Under the pieces are notes generated by a model. That model did no database searches, had not been told where the DNA came from, and saw nothing but the letters and a program-made list of their open reading frames with translations. A DNA stretch of 64,000 nt, from the NCBI RefSeq assembly GCF_030384885.1, contig NZ_CP128613.1; one strand, written 5' to 3'. How positions within the stretch are numbered: the stretch's first letter is position 1; every line of letters begins with the position of its first letter. The position numbers and the translations under genes were made by a program. Below, piece after piece: positions 18,257 through 36,600 of this stretch. This DNA comes from Escherichia coli (GTDB taxonomy: Bacteria > Pseudomonadota > Gammaproteobacteria > Enterobacterales > Enterobacteriaceae).

Positions 18257-19690
18257 GTGACTTTCTTTGATTTCTGGGGAAAAACCCGACGTGGCGAGAA
18301 AGAGGGTGGCGACGATTATCACCTTCTTTGCTGGCATTCGCTGGATGTAGCCGCGATAGGCTATTTAATGGTCAAAAACAACTGTTTCGGGCTGGCTGAC
18401 TATTTTCGTCAATTAGGTTTCGCTGACACGGATCAGGCAGCACAATTTTTCGCCTGGTTGTTGTGCTGGCACGATACTGGAAAATTTGCCCGCTCATTTC
18501 AGCAACTTTACCTGCACCCACAACTCAAGGTTCCGGAAGGCGCAAGAAAGAATTACGAAAAGATCTCTCATTCAACGCTGGGTTACTGGTTGTGGCATCA
18601 TTATTTAATTGAATGTGAAGAGTTGCTTCCTTCATCTTCACTCTCTTTGCGCAAACTTAAACGAGTAATAGATATGTGGATGCCCGTGACGACCGGGCAT
18701 CATGGTCGGCCTCCTGACCGTATCGATGAACTGGACAACTTTCTGCCTGAAGACAAAGCTGCCGCACGGGATTTTCTCCTTGAAATCAAGGTACTGTTTC
18801 CGCTCATCGAGATCCCTACATTCTGGGATGATGACGAGGGCGTTGAACTTATAAAACATTTTTCCTGGTATATCTCTGCAACCGTCGTACTCGCAGACTG
18901 GACGGGATCGTCAACGCGGTTTTTTCCACGCGTTGCACAGGCAATGGATATTAAAGATTACTGGCAGAAGGCTTTAGTTCAGGCTCAAAACGCATTAACC
19001 GTCTTTCCCCCAAAAGCAGAAAGCGCGCCTTTCACTGGAATTAATACGCTGTTTCCTTTTATTGAGAACCCAACACCGTTACAGCAAAAGGTGTTGGATC
19101 TGGATATCAGCCAGCCAGGACCACAGTTGTTTATTCTGGAAGATGTGACTGGCGCAGGTAAAACAGAAGCGGCGCTTATCCTGGCGCACAGGTTGATGTC
19201 TGCGGGGAAAGCACAGGGTTTGTTTTTTGGTTTGCCAACAATGGCAACGGCCAATGCCATGTACGATAGGCTGGTAAAAACCTGGCTTGCTTTCTATTCG
19301 CCACAATCCCGCCCCAGCCTGGTGCTGGCACACAGCGCTCGTTCGCTAATGGATCGCTTTAACGCATCGCTGTGGTCTGGTGATTTTGTGGGGTCAGAAG
19401 AACCGGATGAACAAGCGTTCAGTCAGGGATGTGCGGCCTGGTTTGCTGACAGTAACAAGAAGGCGTTGCTGGCTGAAATTGGCGTCGGCACGCTGGATCA
19501 GGCGATGATGGCGGTGATGCCGTTCAAACATAATAATCTGCGGCTTCTGGGGCTGAGTAACAAAATCCTGCTAGCCGATGAGATCCACGCCTGTGACGCT
19601 TATATGTCGTGCATTCTTGAAGGGCTGATCGAGCGGCAGGCGCGTGGCGGAAACAGCGTTATTTTGCTTTCTGCTACGTTGCCGGGGTAG
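18257..19690 (+). pseudogene. cas3: Truncated cas3: N-terminal HD nuclease plus start of helicase domain, about 477 codons of an expected roughly 890
   Basis: GTG start; HD-domain N-terminus (HLLCWHSLDVAA...WHDTGKF), Walker A GAGKT and LLSATLP motifs; ORF stops at 19690 and a cas5e fragment begins 57 bp later. Confidence 0.85.
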
Positions 19691-19746
19691 GGATACGGCG
19701 TGATGACACCGAATGCTTAAACGCGTTTAATCGCCACTATTCACTG

Positions 19747-20304
19747 GTGGTTTGCGCCAGCCGTAACCCGCGCTGGGCACGGGATTATCACACGGTCCAG
19801 ATGCCAAAAGAGGTGCGTAAAGCGCGTTATTTCAGCCGTCGCGAAGAGTTGAGCGCCCCTGATCTTCTAAGCGCGATTATCTCCCGGCGCGACTACTACA
19901 CCGATGCCTGGTGGATGGTGGCCGTGGCAACAACAGCTGATGCGCCTTACAGCCTCGAACAGTTGCAGGAAGGTTTACGCCATCCGGTTTTTCCGCTTTA
20001 TCTGGGGCGAAAAAGCCATCCGCTGGCATTACCCCTTGCGCCGTTACTGCTTGAAGGTAACGCGTCTGATGCCTTACGTAACGCATACCAACAGTATCAG
20101 GATCGTTTCCACGAACTGAAAGTCTCACTCCCGAAACTTCAGGATGAATGCTGGTGGGAAGGGGAGCACGATGGCCTGGTCTCGAGCAAAATATTACGCC
20201 GCCGGGATGTTCCTTTAAATCGTCAGCAGTGGCTGTTTGGGGAACGCACCGTCAATCAGGGGCCGTGGCTCAGCAAGGAGGAACCATGTACCTCTCAAGA
20301 ATAA
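19747..20304 (+). pseudogene. cas5: C-terminal fragment of cas5e (casD), N-terminal portion missing
   Basis: Contains RDYHTV and YLGRKSHPL-type Cas5e motifs; ends overlapping the cas6e start as in intact I-E loci; no SD before the first in-frame GTG. Confidence 0.7.
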
Positions 20305-22146: not shown

Positions 22147-22242
22147 GTTACCCGTTCTTTAAAAATAAGGAAATGTTTGAATTTAGTTGGTAGATTGTTG
22201 ATGTGGAATAAAATTGTTTAAAAACAGATACGTATGCTTAGT
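22147..22242 (+). promoter_or_regulatory. AT-rich CRISPR leader between cas2 and the first repeat
   Basis: AT-rich, contains agttggtagattgt shared with the other leader. Confidence 0.65.
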
Positions 22243-22576
22243 GTGTTCCCCGCGCCAGCGGGGATAAACCGAATACCCAGCGCTATTTCGAGCGCGAGAG
22301 AGTGTGTTCCCCGCGCCAGCGGGGATAAACCGGAAATTTCGGAAATTAAATCCGCTCGCGATCGGTGTTCCCCGCGCCAGCGGGGATAAACCCCATGGCA
22401 GGAAGAGCGGATGATTTAGGGGTAAGTGTTCCCCGCGCCAGCGGGGATAAACCGAAGCCGGATCACATTTTCTTAGCGGAGCTGACGTGTTCCCCGCGCC
22501 AGCGGGGATAAACCGCTCTCGGTTCTGGGGTACTGTTACCCATAACTGAGCTCCCCCGCGTCAGCGGGGGAACTCC
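22243..22576 (+). CRISPR. Type I-E CRISPR array next to cas2: 6 repeats (GTGTTCCCCGCGCCAGCGGGGATAAACCG; third ends in C; last degenerate) and 5 spacers of 32 bp
   Basis: Repeats read at 22243, 22304, 22365, 22426, 22487 and degenerate at 22548. Confidence 0.95.
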
Positions 22577-29962: not shown

Positions 29963-31324
<1,362 letters not shown>

Positions 31325-31463
31325 AACGTGAGGAAATACCTGGATTTTTCCTGGTTATTTTGCCGCAGGTCAGCGTATCGTGAACATCTTTTCCAGTGTT
31401 CAGTATGGTGCCTTGCACGGTAATTATGTCACTGGTTATTAACCAATTTTTCCTGGGGGATAA

Positions 31464-32603
31464 ATGAGCGCGGGAAGCCCAAAATTCACCGTTCGCCGCA
31501 TTGCGGCTTTGTCACTGGTTTCGCTATGGCTGGCAGGCTGTTCTGACACTTCAAATCCACCGGCACCGGTCAGCTCCGTTAATGGCAATGCGTCTGCAAA
31601 CACCAATTCTGGTATGTTGATTACGCCGCCGCCGAAAATGGGTACGACGTCTACAACGCAGCAACCGCAAATTCAGCCGGTACAGCAGCCACAAATTCAA
31701 TCTGCACAACAACCGCAAATCCAGCCGGTGCAGCCAGTTGCTCAGCCGCCGGTACAGATGGAAAACGGACGCATCGTCTACAACCGTCAGTATGGGAACA
31801 TTCCGAAAGGCAGTTATAGCGGCAGTACATACACCGTGAAAAAAGGCGACACACTTTTCTATATCGCCTGGATTACTGGCAATGATTTCCGTGACCTTGC
31901 TCAGCGCAACAATATTCAGGCGCCATACGCGCTGAATGTAGGTCAGACCTTACAGGTGGGTAATGCTTCCGGTACGCCAATCACTGGCGGAAATGCCATT
32001 ACCCAGGCCGATGCAGCAGAGCAAGGAGTTGTGATCAAGCCTGCACAAAATTCCACCGTTGCTGTTGCGTCGCAACCGACAATTACGTATTCTGAGTCTT
32101 CGGGTGAACAGAGTGCTAACAAAATGTTGCCGAACAACAAGCCAACTGGGACCACGGTCACAGCGCCTGTAACGGTACCAACAGCAAGCACAACCGAGCC
32201 GACTGTCAGCAGTACATCAACCAGTGCGCCTATCTCCACCTGGCGCTGGCCGACTGAGGGCAAAGTGATCGAAACCTTTGGTGCTTCTGAGGGGGGCAAC
32301 AAGGGGATTGATATCGCAGGCAGCAAAGGACAGGCAATTATCGCGACCGCAGATGGCCGCGTTGTTTATGCCGGTAACGCGCTGCGCGGCTACGGTAATC
32401 TGATTATCATCAAACATAATGATGATTACCTGAGTGCCTACGCCCATAACGACACAATGCTGGTCCGGGAACAACAAGAAGTGAAGGCGGGGCAAAAAAT
32501 AGCAACCATGGGTAGCACCGGAACCAGTTCAACACGCTTGCATTTTGAAATTCGTTACAAGGGGAAATCCGTAAACCCGCTGCGTTATTTGCCGCAGCGA
32601 TAA
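31464..32603 (+). CDS. nlpD: Murein hydrolase activator lipoprotein NlpD (379 aa) with LysM and M23 peptidase-like domains and a Q/P-rich tandem repeat
   Basis: Lipobox LAGCS; QQPQIQ repeats at about 31660-31750; C-terminal M23-like region. Confidence 0.93.
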
Positions 32604-32665
32604 ATCGGCGGAACCAGGCTTTTGCTTGAATGTTCCGTCAAGGGATCACGGGTAGGAGCCACCTT

Positions 32666-33658
32666 ATGAGTCAGAATACGCTGAAAGTTCATGATTTAAA
32701 TGAAGATGCGGAATTTGATGAGAACGGAGTTGAGGTTTTTGACGAAAAGGCCTTAGTAGAAGAGGAACCCAGTGATAACGATTTGGCCGAAGAGGAACTG
32801 TTATCGCAAGGGGCCACACAGCGTGTGTTGGACGCGACTCAGCTTTACCTTGGTGAGATTGGTTATTCACCACTGTTAACGGCCGAAGAAGAAGTTTATT
32901 TTGCGCGTCGCGCACTGCGAGGAGATGTTGCCTCCCGCCGCCGGATGATCGAGAGTAACTTGCGTCTGGTGGTAAAAATTGCCCGCCGTTATGGCAATCG
33001 TGGTCTGGCTTTGCTGGATCTTATCGAAGAGGGCAACCTGGGGCTGATCCGCGCGGTAGAGAAGTTTGACCCGGAACGTGGTTTCCGCTTCTCAACATAC
33101 GCAACCTGGTGGATTCGCCAGACGATCGAACGGGCGATTATGAACCAAACCCGTACTATTCGTTTGCCGATTCACATCGTAAAGGAGCTGAACGTTTACC
33201 TGCGAACCGCACGTGAGTTGTCCCATAAGCTGGACCACGAACCAAGTGCGGAAGAGATCGCAGAGCAGCTGGATAAGCCAGTTGATGACGTCAGCCGTAT
33301 GCTTCGTCTTAACGAGCGCATTACCTCGGTAGACACCCCGCTGGGTGGAGATTCCGAAAAAGCGTTGCTGGACATCCTGGCCGATGAAAAAGAAAACGGC
33401 CCGGAAGACACCACGCAAGATGACGATATGAAACAAAGCATCGTCAAATGGCTGTTCGAACTGAACGCCAAGCAGCGTGAAGTGCTGGCACGTCGATTCG
33501 GTTTGCTGGGATACGAAGCGGCAACACTGGAAGATGTAGGTCGTGAAATTGGCCTCACCCGTGAACGTGTTCGCCAGATTCAGGTTGAAGGCCTGCGCCG
33601 TTTGCGCGAAATCCTGCAAACGCAGGGGCTGAATATCGAAGCGCTGTTCCGCGAATAA
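32666..33658 (+). CDS. rpoS: RNA polymerase sigma factor RpoS (330 aa)
   Basis: Start [14 protein letters not shown] at ATG 32666; sigma-70 family regions; codon 33 is GAG. Confidence 0.95.
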
Positions 33659-33778: not shown

Positions 33779-34186
33779 CTATTTGCTCATCATCTTGCGC
33801 ACCAGCTGCATAAACAGCTCCTGCTCTTCTCCACTCAAACGCCCCAAAAATTCCTCATCCACACTGTCGCCAATCGGTATCGCCGCAGCAAGTACCTTTT
33901 CTCCTTCGGCAGTCAGCCAGACAAAGCGTCGCCGCTTATCAGCGGTGTCATGTTCACGTCTGACTAAGCCACGATTTTCCATTCTTGCCAACATTTCTGC
34001 CAGCGTTGCTTTGGTGCTGACGGCTGCTTCCATCAGTGCCACCTGTTCGATACCAGGTTTATCAGCAATGGCGCGCATCACCGCGTACTGTGGTTTGGTC
34101 AGGTCAGGTAACTCGTGCTGCCAGCGGGCCGTATGCTGCTGAAAAAGCTGTCGTAACTGATGGAACGCTTTATTTCGTAACGCCAT
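33779..34186 (-). CDS. hosA: MarR/SlyA-family transcriptional regulator, HosA-like (135 aa)
   Basis: Winged-helix MarR-like ORF divergent from the decarboxylase operon. Confidence 0.8.
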   Translation of the reverse strand: MALRNKAFHQLRQLFQQHTARWQHELPDLTKPQYAVMRAIADKPGIEQVALMEAAVSTKATLAEMLARMENRGLVRREHDTADKRRRFVWLTAEGEKVLAAAIPIGDSVDEEFLGRLSGEEQELFMQLVRKMMSK

Positions 34187-34332
34187 GTAAACTCCGGGCT
34201 AATTCTCTGTCGCTATCATAGCGGTTTTTCAGTGACGAAGAAGATGTTGTTACTTTTCAATCCTTGCCGCTGTGGAAATGAAGGAGTATGTTAATAATAA
34301 CGTTCGTATACGAACAATTAAGAGAGTAAGCA

Positions 34333-34926
34333 ATGAAACTGATCGTCGGGATGACAGGGGCTACCGGTGCGCCTCTTGGTGTGGCATTACTGCAAGCGCT
34401 GCGGGAGATGCCGAATGTCGAGACTCATCTGGTGATGTCGAAGTGGGCGAAAACCACTATTGAACTGGAAACGCCTTACAGCGCTCGCGATGTTGCCGCC
34501 CTCGCTGACTTCAGCCATAACCCGGCAGATCAGGCTGCGACCATCTCTTCCGGCTCCTTTCGTACCGACGGCATGATCGTTATTCCATGCAGTATGAAAA
34601 CGCTCGCCGGTATCCGCGCTGGTTACGCCGATGGTCTCGTAGGGCGCGCGGCGGACGTCGTGCTCAAAGAAGGCCGCAAACTGGTGCTGGTGCCGCGTGA
34701 AATGCCGCTTAGCACCATCCATCTCGAAAATATGCTCGCACTTTCGCGCATGGGCGTGGCGATGGTGCCGCCGATGCCTGCCTTTTATAACCATCCCGAA
34801 ACGGTAGATGACATTGTCCACCACGTGGTAGCCCGCGTGCTGGATCAATTTGGCCTCGAACATCCTCACGCCAGGCGCTGGCAAGGGTTGCCGCAGGCCC
34901 GGAATTTTTCTCAGGAGAATGAATAA
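34333..34926 (+). CDS. ecdB: UbiX/Pad1-family flavin prenyltransferase (197 aa)
   Basis: N-terminus MKLIVGMTGATGA typical of UbiX. Confidence 0.85.
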   Translation: MKLIVGMTGATGAPLGVALLQALREMPNVETHLVMSKWAKTTIELETPYSARDVAALADFSHNPADQAATISSGSFRTDGMIVIPCSMKTLAGIRAGYADGLVGRAADVVLKEGRKLVLVPREMPLSTIHLENMLALSRMGVAMVPPMPAFYNHPETVDDIVHHVVARVLDQFGLEHPHARRWQGLPQARNFSQENE

Positions 34927-36353
34927 TGGCATTTGATGATTTACGCAGCTTCTTACAGGCGCTTGATGACCACGGCCAGTTACTGAAAATCAGCGAAGAG
35001 GTGAACGCGGAACCGGATCTGGCAGCCGCTGCCAACGCCACCGGGCGTATCGGCGACGGCGCGCCCGCGCTGTGGTTTGATAATATTCGCGGCTTTATCG
35101 ATGCCCGCGTTGCAATGAACACCATCGGTTCTTGGCAGAACCACGCAATTTCTCTCGGTCTGCCGCCAAACACCCCGGTTAAAAAACAGATTGATGAGTT
35201 TATCCGCCGCTGGGATAACTTCCCGATAGCCCCGGAGCGCCGTGCGAATCCTGCCTGGGCGCAGAACACCGTCGATGGCGACGAGATCAATTTGTTCAAT
35301 ATCCTGCCGCTGTTTCGTTTAAACGATGGCGATGGCGGTTTCTATCTCGACAAAGCGTGCGTGGTTTCCCGCGATCCGCTCGATCCGGATAACTTCGGCA
35401 AGCAGAACGTCGGCATCTATCGCATGGAAGTGAAGGGTAAGCGTAAGCTCGGCCTGCAACCGGTGCCGATGCACGATATCGCCCTGCATCTGCATAAAGC
35501 GGAAGAACGTGGTGAAGATTTGCCAATTGCCATCACGCTGGGTAACGATCCGATCATCACCCTGATGGGCGCCACCCCGCTGAAATATGATCAATCGGAG
35601 TACGAAATGGCGGGCGCGCTACGCGAAAGCCCGTACCCGATCGCCACCGCCCCGCTGACCGGTTTTGATGTGCCGTGGGGTTCAGAAGTGATCCTCGAAG
35701 GGGTTATCGAAAGCCGCAAACGTGAAATCGAAGGGCCGTTCGGTGAGTTTACCGGGCACTACTCCGGTGGGCGCAACATGACCGTAGTGCGCATCGATAA
35801 AGTCTCTTACCGCACCAAACCGATTTTTGAATCGCTCTATCTCGGCATGCCGTGGACCGAAATCGACTACCTGATGGGGCCTGCCACCTGCGTGCCGCTT
35901 TACCAGCAGTTGAAAGCCGAGTTCCCGGAAGTGCAGGCGGTGAACGCTATGTACACCCACGGCCTGCTGGCGATTATCTCCACCAAAAAACGCTATGGCG
36001 GCTTTGCCCGCGCAGTGGGCCTGCGTGCGATGACCACGCCGCACGGTCTGGGTTATGTGAAGATGGTGATTATGGTCGATGAAGACGTTGACCCGTTCAA
36101 CCTGCCGCAGGTGATGTGGGCGCTCTCGTCGAAAGTGAACCCGGCAGGCGATCTGGTGCAACTGCCAAATATGTCCGTGCTGGAACTCGACCCAGGCTCA
36201 AGCCCGGCGGGGATCACCGATAAGCTGATTATCGACGCCACCACGCCTGTCGCCCCGGACAACCGTGGTCACTACAGCCAGCCGGTGGTGGACTTACCGG
36301 AAACCAAAGCCTGGGCTGAAAAACTGACCGCTATGCTGGCCGCACGTAAATAA
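34926..36353 (+). CDS. ecdC: UbiD-family (prFMN-dependent) aromatic acid decarboxylase (475 aa)
   Basis: UbiD-like length and sequence; translationally coupled to the UbiX-like gene. Confidence 0.85.
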   Translation: MAFDDLRSFLQALDDHGQLLKISEEVNAEPDLAAAANATGRIGDGAPALWFDNIRGFIDARVAMNTIGSWQNHAISLGLPPNTPVKKQIDEFIRRWDNFPIAPERRANPAWAQNTVDGDEINLFNILPLFRLNDGDGGFYLDKACVVSRDPLDPDNFGKQNVGIYRMEVKGKRKLGLQPVPMHDIALHLHKAEERGEDLPIAITLGNDPIITLMGATPLKYDQSEYEMAGALRESPYPIATAPLTGFDVPWGSEVILEGVIESRKREIEGPFGEFTGHYSGGRNMTVVRIDKVSYRTKPIFESLYLGMPWTEIDYLMGPATCVPLYQQLKAEFPEVQAVNAMYTHGLLAIISTKKRYGGFARAVGLRAMTTPHGLGYVKMVIMVDEDVDPFNLPQVMWALSSKVNPAGDLVQLPNMSVLELDPGSSPAGITDKLIIDATTPVAPDNRGHYSQPVVDLPETKAWAEKLTAMLAARK

Positions 36354-36363
36354 GGAGAACAAG

Positions 36364-36600
36364 ATGATTTGTCCACGTTGTGCCGATGAACAGATTGAAG
36401 TGATGGCGAAATCGCCGGTGAAAAATGTCTGGACGGTCTACCAGTGCCAGCATTGCCTTTATACATGGCGCGATACTGAACCGCTACGTCGCACCAGCCG
36501 CGAACATTATCCCGAAGCCTTCCGTATGACGCAGAAAGATATTGATGACGCACCGATGGTGCCGAGCATTCCGCCGCTGCTGGCGGAAGGTAAGCGCTAA
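36364..36600 (+). CDS. ecdD: Small zinc-ribbon-like subunit of the decarboxylase (78 aa)
   Basis: CPRC...CQHC cysteine pairs; third gene of a three-gene operon. Confidence 0.75.
   Translation: MICPRCADEQIEVMAKSPVKNVWTVYQCQHCLYTWRDTEPLRRTSREHYPEAFRMTQKDIDDAPMVPSIPPLLAEGKR

Follow-up and report, generated by a model that had tools for sequence, protein, structure and literature searches.

The glutamine/proline repeat of Escherichia coli nlpD is a weakly unstable, in-frame 24-nucleotide tandem array in the N-terminal linker of the protein

In E. coli the gene for the murein hydrolase activator NlpD precedes rpoS, and a sequence-only reading of the stretch of 64,000 nucleotides analysed herein (the window) placed inside nlpD a tandem repeat that was described as slippage-prone and likely to vary in copy number among strains. 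This raises the question of whether the array is a genuine repeat, whether its length does change between genomes, and whether such changes would matter to NlpD or to the expression of rpoS. The gene and the domains of its product were delimited as follows:

31464 to 32603, plus strand: nlpD coding sequence, 379 aa from the classical ATG start (open reading frame list, Pfam, annotation and the pcm-nlpD-rpoS context).
31464 to 31541, plus strand: lipoprotein signal peptide with the lipobox LAGC at aa 23-26, the lipidated cysteine being residue 26 (from the translation).
31830 to 31958, plus strand: LysM peptidoglycan-binding domain, aa 123-165 (Pfam PF01476, E = 2.6e-12).
32298 to 32579, plus strand: degenerate LytM / Peptidase_M23 domain, aa 279-372 (Pfam PF01551, E = 4.6e-33).

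The gene order pcm-nlpD-rpoS is present around 31464-32603, and a full-gene search found the annotation “murein hydrolase activator NlpD” in 5,421 of 5,421 matching complete E. coli genomes; the repeat had thus been correctly placed within nlpD, in an open reading frame with LysM and Peptidase_M23 domains. The window’s protein is 98% identical to the E. coli NlpD clusters of the protein database. It carries NKGIDI in place of HxxxD and TRLHFE (RLHFE) in place of HxH, at the metal-ligand positions of the M23 family, and such degeneracy is expected for a non-catalytic activator. By these features the product would be NlpD, an outer-membrane lipoprotein whose role is to activate AmiC, the septal amidase. 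The nlpD allele of the window is uncommon at the nucleotide level, with a match of at least 99% in 17 of the 5,421 complete E. coli genomes, most of which are 97.5-98.1% identical to it; the exact protein is nevertheless encoded on 307 contigs. RefSeq/PGAP now places the start at a TTG at 31509 (364 aa) instead of the classical ATG at 31464 (379 aa). With the TTG start the signal peptide loses its positively charged n-region, whereas the ATG yields a normal lipoprotein signal and the numbering used in experimental NlpD papers, which is followed here. The start called at TTG 31509 accounts for the 364-, 363- and 348-aa entries for NlpD in the databases.

Within this gene, an imperfect tandem array of 24-nt units runs in frame from 31659 to 31754 (aa 66-97) and comprises three full units and one degenerate unit. 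Tandem Repeats Finder (TRF) reported a single array at 31659-31734, with a period of 24, 3.2 copies, 69% matches and a score of 89. The units and the shorter repeats within them are:

31659 to 31682, plus strand: repeat unit 1, CAGCAACCGCAAATTCAGCCGGTA, encoding QQPQIQPV, aa 66-73 (TRF and in-frame reading).
31683 to 31706, plus strand: repeat unit 2, CAGCAGCCACAAATTCAATCTGCA, encoding QQPQIQSA, aa 74-81 (TRF and in-frame reading).
31707 to 31730, plus strand: repeat unit 3, CAACAACCGCAAATCCAGCCGGTG, encoding QQPQIQPV, aa 82-89 (in-frame reading).
31731 to 31754, plus strand: degenerate unit 4, CAGCCAGTTGCTCAGCCGCCGGTA, encoding QPVAQPPV, aa 90-97 (in-frame reading).
31662 to 31672, plus strand, with a second copy at 31710-31720: 11-nt microhomology CAACCGCAAAT, the longest exact repeat, at an offset of 48.
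31722 to 31739, plus strand: tandem 9-nt mini-repeat CAGCCGGTG CAGCCAGTT (QPV QPV), read from the sequence, one copy of which is lost in the −9 alleles described below.

The Q/P-rich repeat proposed from the letters is therefore a series of in-frame QQPQIQxx octapeptides, and “about four copies” was a fair count for three good units and a degenerate one. The 27-nt string that had been given as the repeat unit extends from the start of unit 1 through one codon of unit 2, the true period being 24 nt, and “near-identical”, although it pointed to a real repeat, overstated the likeness of the DNA, in which the full units share 18/24 (units 1 and 2), 21/24 (units 1 and 3) and 15/24 (units 2 and 3) nucleotides. 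The three sites at which units 1 and 3 differ are all synonymous. Exact repeats within the array extend to at most 8 nt at an offset of 24, 11 nt at an offset of 48 and 10 nt at an offset of 72. When the codons of nlpD were shuffled 300 times, the best 52-nt self-match averaged 25.8 identities (s.d. 1.4, maximum 31), as against 36 in the actual gene, and the array is thus beyond a composition artefact or chance.

SNPs are denser in the array than anywhere else in the gene: 8 of the 28 differences between the nlpD genes of the window and K-12 fall within its 96 of 1140 nt (Fisher p = 0.0014, to be read as a naive guide). The window carries QQPQIQSA and QPVAQPPV where K-12 has QQPQIQAT and QPVAQQPV, and the window allele is rare. 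QQPQIQ is nevertheless encoded by all full, in-register units of the window, of K-12 and of a seven-unit allele, while all six third codon positions of this core vary, and the last two residues of each unit alternate between PV, SA, AT and PI. Rare variants with a single changed residue occur in the repeat (proteins P0002 and P0006). A synonymous-only test on the QQPQIQ core was discarded, since the regular expression behind it had picked out units that code for QQPQIQ and made it circular, and the listing of in-register units was used in its place. These comparisons place the constraint on the peptide rather than on the DNA and thus speak against a role of the array at the DNA or RNA level, and the strictly kept core may make the peptide more than an inert spacer. 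Only E. coli, E. fergusonii and E. albertii-type sequences have the clean array. In other enterobacterial genera, PQIQPVQ ... QPVxxQPVQ is kept around decayed, length-variable middles without an array (the NlpD of C. freundii has 362 aa), and the NlpD of Yersinia is without the repeat region (PMC2736372).

We then asked how often the length of the array differs among strains. BLAST splits large indels into pieces, which leaves full-gene identity bands blind to them (the full-gene search gave a 1,140-bp span in 59 of 59 sampled genomes), and the census was hence made with synthetic, K-12-based allele queries that span the junctions, run against complete E. coli genomes, 5,419 of which gave a match. 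The alleles were distributed as follows:

5,378 of 5,419 complete E. coli genomes (99.2%): normal three-unit pattern.
28 genomes: −48 bp (one unit), O157:H7-type including clade 8 strains.
1 genome: −48 bp, OkiPb01695.
2 genomes: −48 bp, pig isolates PEC145 and PEC411, which match the −48 query exactly.
1 genome: +48 bp (five units), PapRG-04-4.
7 genomes: −9 bp (one QPV lost), three units kept and counted within the 5,378.

One-unit alleles total 31 of the 5,419 genomes, and array length differs in about 0.7% of complete E. coli genomes; 11 genomes gave partial matches only, including PEC145 and PEC411, so that up to 9 have no allele assigned. Alleles shorter or longer by a single unit (−24 or +24 bp) were absent among the complete E. 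coli genomes in which coverage reached 80% or more. Among the O157:H7-type carriers of the −48 allele are TW14359, EC4115, SS17, SS52, JEONG-1266 and RM6067W, and JEONG-1266, EC4115 and SS17 belong to lineage I/II, clade 8 (PMC7289925). The protein database adds 363-aa one-unit alleles from S. dysenteriae (30 contigs, including a 4.64-Mb chromosome), S. flexneri (22 contigs) and also S. boydii, further −9 alleles (proteins P0123, P0131 and P0153) and a single E. coli protein longer by 24 aa, or +72 bp (P0003). In the one-unit S. dysenteriae genome CP026828.1 (locus L007, 1455-1692), rpoS is called as a 29-aa open reading frame followed by one of 277 aa, which points to a disruption close to the 5′ end of rpoS in this strain. 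E. albertii-type sequences have five units in two arrangements and seven units in one 405-aa protein; with each unit named by its last two residues, the arrays read PI-PV-SA-SA-PV, PI-PV-PV-SA-PV and (PI-PV-SA)x2-PV (proteins P0136, P0137 and P0004, the last at locus L010, 3001-4218). The array may be less stable in E. albertii than in E. coli.

Over all Escherichia and Shigella alleles, the number of units is 1, 3, 5, 6-equivalent or 7. The forecast of copy-number variation among strains was accordingly borne out by one-, three-, five- and seven-unit alleles, the repeat number not being identical in all strains, but such variation is rare in E. coli. As a head-to-tail repeat at one locus whose length is polymorphic between individuals, the array is a weakly unstable in-frame VNTR and not a hypervariable one.

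The junctions of the variant alleles indicate how they may have come about. In TW14359, OkiPb01695, S. dysenteriae and S. flexneri the surviving unit consists of CAGCAACCGCAAAT, from the 5′ end of unit 1, joined to CCAGCCAGTG, from the 3′ end of unit 3, and the crossover of this hybrid falls inside the 11-nt microhomology, which is the site of both the common −48 and the +48 alleles; the +48 allele of PapRG-04-4 carries the reciprocal hybrid of units 3 and 1. PEC145 keeps unit 1 intact and has a separate junction at the GTGCAGC unit boundary, and in the seven-unit allele 72 bp are perfectly duplicated. The E. coli events follow the length of the microhomology, with most at the 11 nt of offset 48, the +72 alleles (P0003, L010) at the 10 nt of offset 72, and none at the 8 nt of offset 24. 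All variants, whether −48, +48, +72 or −9 bp, remain in frame. The flanks of the TW14359 array show no difference from a normal O157:H7 allele and 6-7 SNPs relative to the OkiPb and Shigella alleles, and since the flanking backgrounds differ, the same −48 deletion arose more than once. Shared junctions could in principle have spread by recombination rather than by recurrence; the flanking SNPs of the O157:H7 genomes argue against this. The recurrent junction on different SNP backgrounds fits the misalignment that “slippage-prone” implied, but the array is only weakly unstable, as judged from population data.

Based on these patterns, the clean array would have originated by local duplication within the genus Escherichia. 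Misalignment between units at microhomologies of 7-11 nt, probably by replication slippage or unequal recombination, would occasionally change the copy number, and the in-frame products are tolerated and sometimes become established in a whole lineage, examples being O157:H7 clade 8, S. dysenteriae and S. flexneri. We are therefore confident that the locus is best explained as an in-frame Q/P tether array in which occasional misalignment changes the copy number, near-neutrally and without an effect on rpoS, although the near-neutrality of copy number is something that we infer. As rearrangements follow microhomology length, the array offers a tidy natural example of misalignment mutagenesis, and for the annotation or engineering of nlpD it means that length variants in this region are real and not assembly errors.

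How much of this is new can be judged against known systems. Ichikawa et al. (1994) already had the “unusual amino acid repeat” of NlpD in their title, and it was noted again in 2009 (PMC2736372). Gene, position and peptide repeat are all the same here, and nothing structural differs, the window allele being merely a rare one; the nlpD Q/P repeat is thus already known, real and ordinary, and in itself matters little, having been known since 1994 in a protein whose linkers are already treated as disordered spacers. The small new detail is the lineage-fixed 16-aa deletion in the 28 O157:H7-type genomes, including clade 8, and in Shigella, of which the literature on nlpD together with TW14359, EC4115 or spinach-outbreak O157 yielded no mention. 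This deletion may be neutral; it might find use in marking lineages or, as a natural experiment, in gauging the tether length that NlpD needs.

The closest parallel is the repeat in tolA (Zhou et al. 2012, PMC3477136), which is likewise imperfect and in frame, lies in an extended, periplasm-spanning part of an envelope and division protein, and changes its copy number by slippage or recombination. The tolA array, however, has about 13 units of 15-18 bp that form an alpha-helical, K/A-rich rod, and ranged from 8 to 16 copies among 234 isolates (PMC3477136), whereas that of nlpD has three units in a Q/P-rich stretch that is predicted to be disordered and varies in about 0.7% of genomes. With phase-variable, simple-sequence contingency loci the nlpD array shares a repeat-mediated change of length in the coding region of an envelope gene. 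Unlike at those loci, the unit is long (24 nt, a multiple of three) and imperfect, and variation is rare and fixed in lineages rather than found within a clone. The on/off switching of frame or promoter spacing that marks contingency loci was not observed, all variants being in frame, and the −48 allele is fixed across 28 related O157:H7-type genomes, which argues for stability. The array is not a phase-variation locus: its units are imperfect, their length is a multiple of three and they are stable within lineages. The nlpD mutation hotspot of P. fluorescens (Farr et al. 2025, PMC11838912) is similar in that an rpoS promoter is embedded in nlpD and mutation is locally elevated, but it consists of a single, transcription-dependent C-to-T change at the promoter (PMC11838912), whereas the E. 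coli events are repeat-mediated indels far upstream.

What does the repeat stretch do in the protein? It lies between the lipidated Cys26 and the start of LysM at aa 123, inside an N-terminal linker (aa 27-122) of which about 78-79% of residues are P, Q, S, T, N, G, A or charged. Among the solved NlpD structures in the PDB, none covers aa 1-234, and an AlphaFold2 model from a 31-sequence alignment (mean pLDDT 37) rendered the M23 domain poorly as well and thus says nothing specific on disorder in the repeat. Both NlpD linkers have been predicted to be disordered with DISOPRED, and the N-terminal linker alone, expressed as a fusion, showed weak midcell enrichment (Tsang et al., PMC5533458). NlpD is also among the outer-membrane lipoproteins with a disordered N-terminal linker studied by El Rayes et al. 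(bioRxiv 10.1101/2021.01.05.425367), where it was one of the tested cases: about 60% of NlpD lacking aa 29-64 stays in the inner membrane, and the variant complements poorly. The repeat is part of the same linker between the cysteine and the first folded domain, but that deletion stops just before aa 66-97, and the sorting defect pertains to aa 29-64. We infer that the linker, including the repeat, is a disordered spacer.

It is unlikely, though less so than the other alternatives, that copy number is functionally tuned, such that the count of QQPQIQ motifs would set the reach, stiffness, sorting or partner avidity of NlpD, and that O157:H7 clade 8 and Shigella repeatedly lost two units as an adaptation, in the manner of a slow, contingency-like switch. 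The recurrence of the −48 deletion on different backgrounds and its fixation in successful pathogen lineages would fit such tuning, as would the constancy of the QQPQIQ core despite synonymous divergence. Linker length and disorder matter for the Lol-dependent sorting of RcsF, and the sorting defect upon loss of aa 29-64 (bioRxiv 10.1101/2021.01.05.425367), the weak midcell enrichment of the linker alone (PMC5533458) and the reported modulation of stress tolerance by tolA repeat number (PMC3477136) point the same way. Three units are however retained in 99.2% of complete E. coli genomes, the carriers also include commensal-type isolates from pigs and cattle, pathogens are heavily over-sampled, other genera vary the stretch freely (as the 362 aa of C. 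freundii illustrate), and a literature search found no phenotype tied to any nlpD repeat allele. The narrower proposal, that O157:H7 clade 8, S. dysenteriae and S. flexneri converged adaptively on the identical, recurrent loss of two units (16 aa), strikes us as decidedly improbable. Were it true, a shorter tether or fewer QQPQIQ motifs would alter the septal reach or hold of NlpD, or its Lol sorting, and in turn change envelope or virulence-related phenotypes.

The second part of the question concerns rpoS, since a growth-phase-regulated promoter of that gene lies within nlpD (PMC5533458, PMC3391293). The relevant features are:

32666 to 33658, plus strand: rpoS coding sequence (open reading frame list and gene context).
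32065 to 32099, plus strand: inferred internal rpoS promoter, TTGCGT-17 nt-TATTCT (hexamers at 32065-32093, read by eye), with a start site near 32099.

The start site follows from an rpoS leader taken as 567 nt long, counted back from the rpoS start at 32666. A scan of 31300-32700 for consensus promoters returned no site, and the position given here therefore rests on the literature and on hexamers read by eye. The array stops 311 nt short of the inferred −35 and does not overlap the promoter, in agreement with the sequence-only reading, which had set it upstream of the region that drives rpoS; an effect of the array on rpoS is not expected. We regard it as very improbable that the repeat acts as DNA or RNA, for instance by offering repeated binding sites, or by forming a structure in the nlpD-rpoS co-transcript, with an influence on the expression of rpoS. 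The two genes do form an operon with the main rpoS promoter inside nlpD (PMC5533458, PMC3391293), which speaks for this idea. Besides the distance of the array from the −35, it is the most nucleotide-variable part of nlpD, at synonymous sites too, while the peptide is conserved; thriving lineages have lost whole units; Yersinia does without the repeat (PMC2736372); and an Rfam scan gave no match in nlpD. In addition, a 12-bp in-frame deletion in nlpD of Salmonella UK-1, which we placed in the Q/P-rich stretch from the deleted sequence, was judged by its authors to lie outside the rpoS promoter region (PMC3391293).

Finally, that there is no true repeat, a Q/P bias mimicking periodicity and assembly errors mimicking length variants, is scarcely credible: the units are indeed only 62-88% identical and the region is of low complexity, but the self-match stands 7 s.d. 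above the codon shuffles in a register of exactly 24 nt, and the variants recur with precise whole-unit junctions in 28 independently closed O157:H7-type genomes and in many Shigella assemblies.

Other parts of the window also yielded observations. Compared with strain 2013C-4282, to which it is otherwise 99.98% identical, the type I-E cas operon at 18257-20304 lacks an internal segment of 4.6 kb (junction near 19680) with the 3′ part of cas3, casA, casB, cas7e and the start of cas5e, and retains cas6e, cas1e, cas2e and the CRISPR array; 2013C-4282 for its part has a cas3 that is annotated as frameshifted. A small CRISPR array adjoins iap at 22240-22515 and has five repeats of 29-32 nt (GTGTTCCCCGCGCCAGCGGGGATAAACCG core) at a spacing of 61 nt, with four spacers. 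Upstream, 17725-17881 matches the sok antitoxin RNA of Rfam (104.5 bits, E = 1.2e-22), and a Hok/Gef-family open reading frame is annotated at the equivalent site in 2013C-4282, this being a chromosomal hok/sok locus between cysH and cas3. Directly downstream of rpoS, 33779-36600 encodes a MarR-type regulator (minus strand) and the hydroxyarylic acid decarboxylase subunits B/C/D (UbiX/UbiD-like), genes that precede ygbN...mutS and that represent the known strain-variable rpoS-mutS segment, which K-12 lacks.
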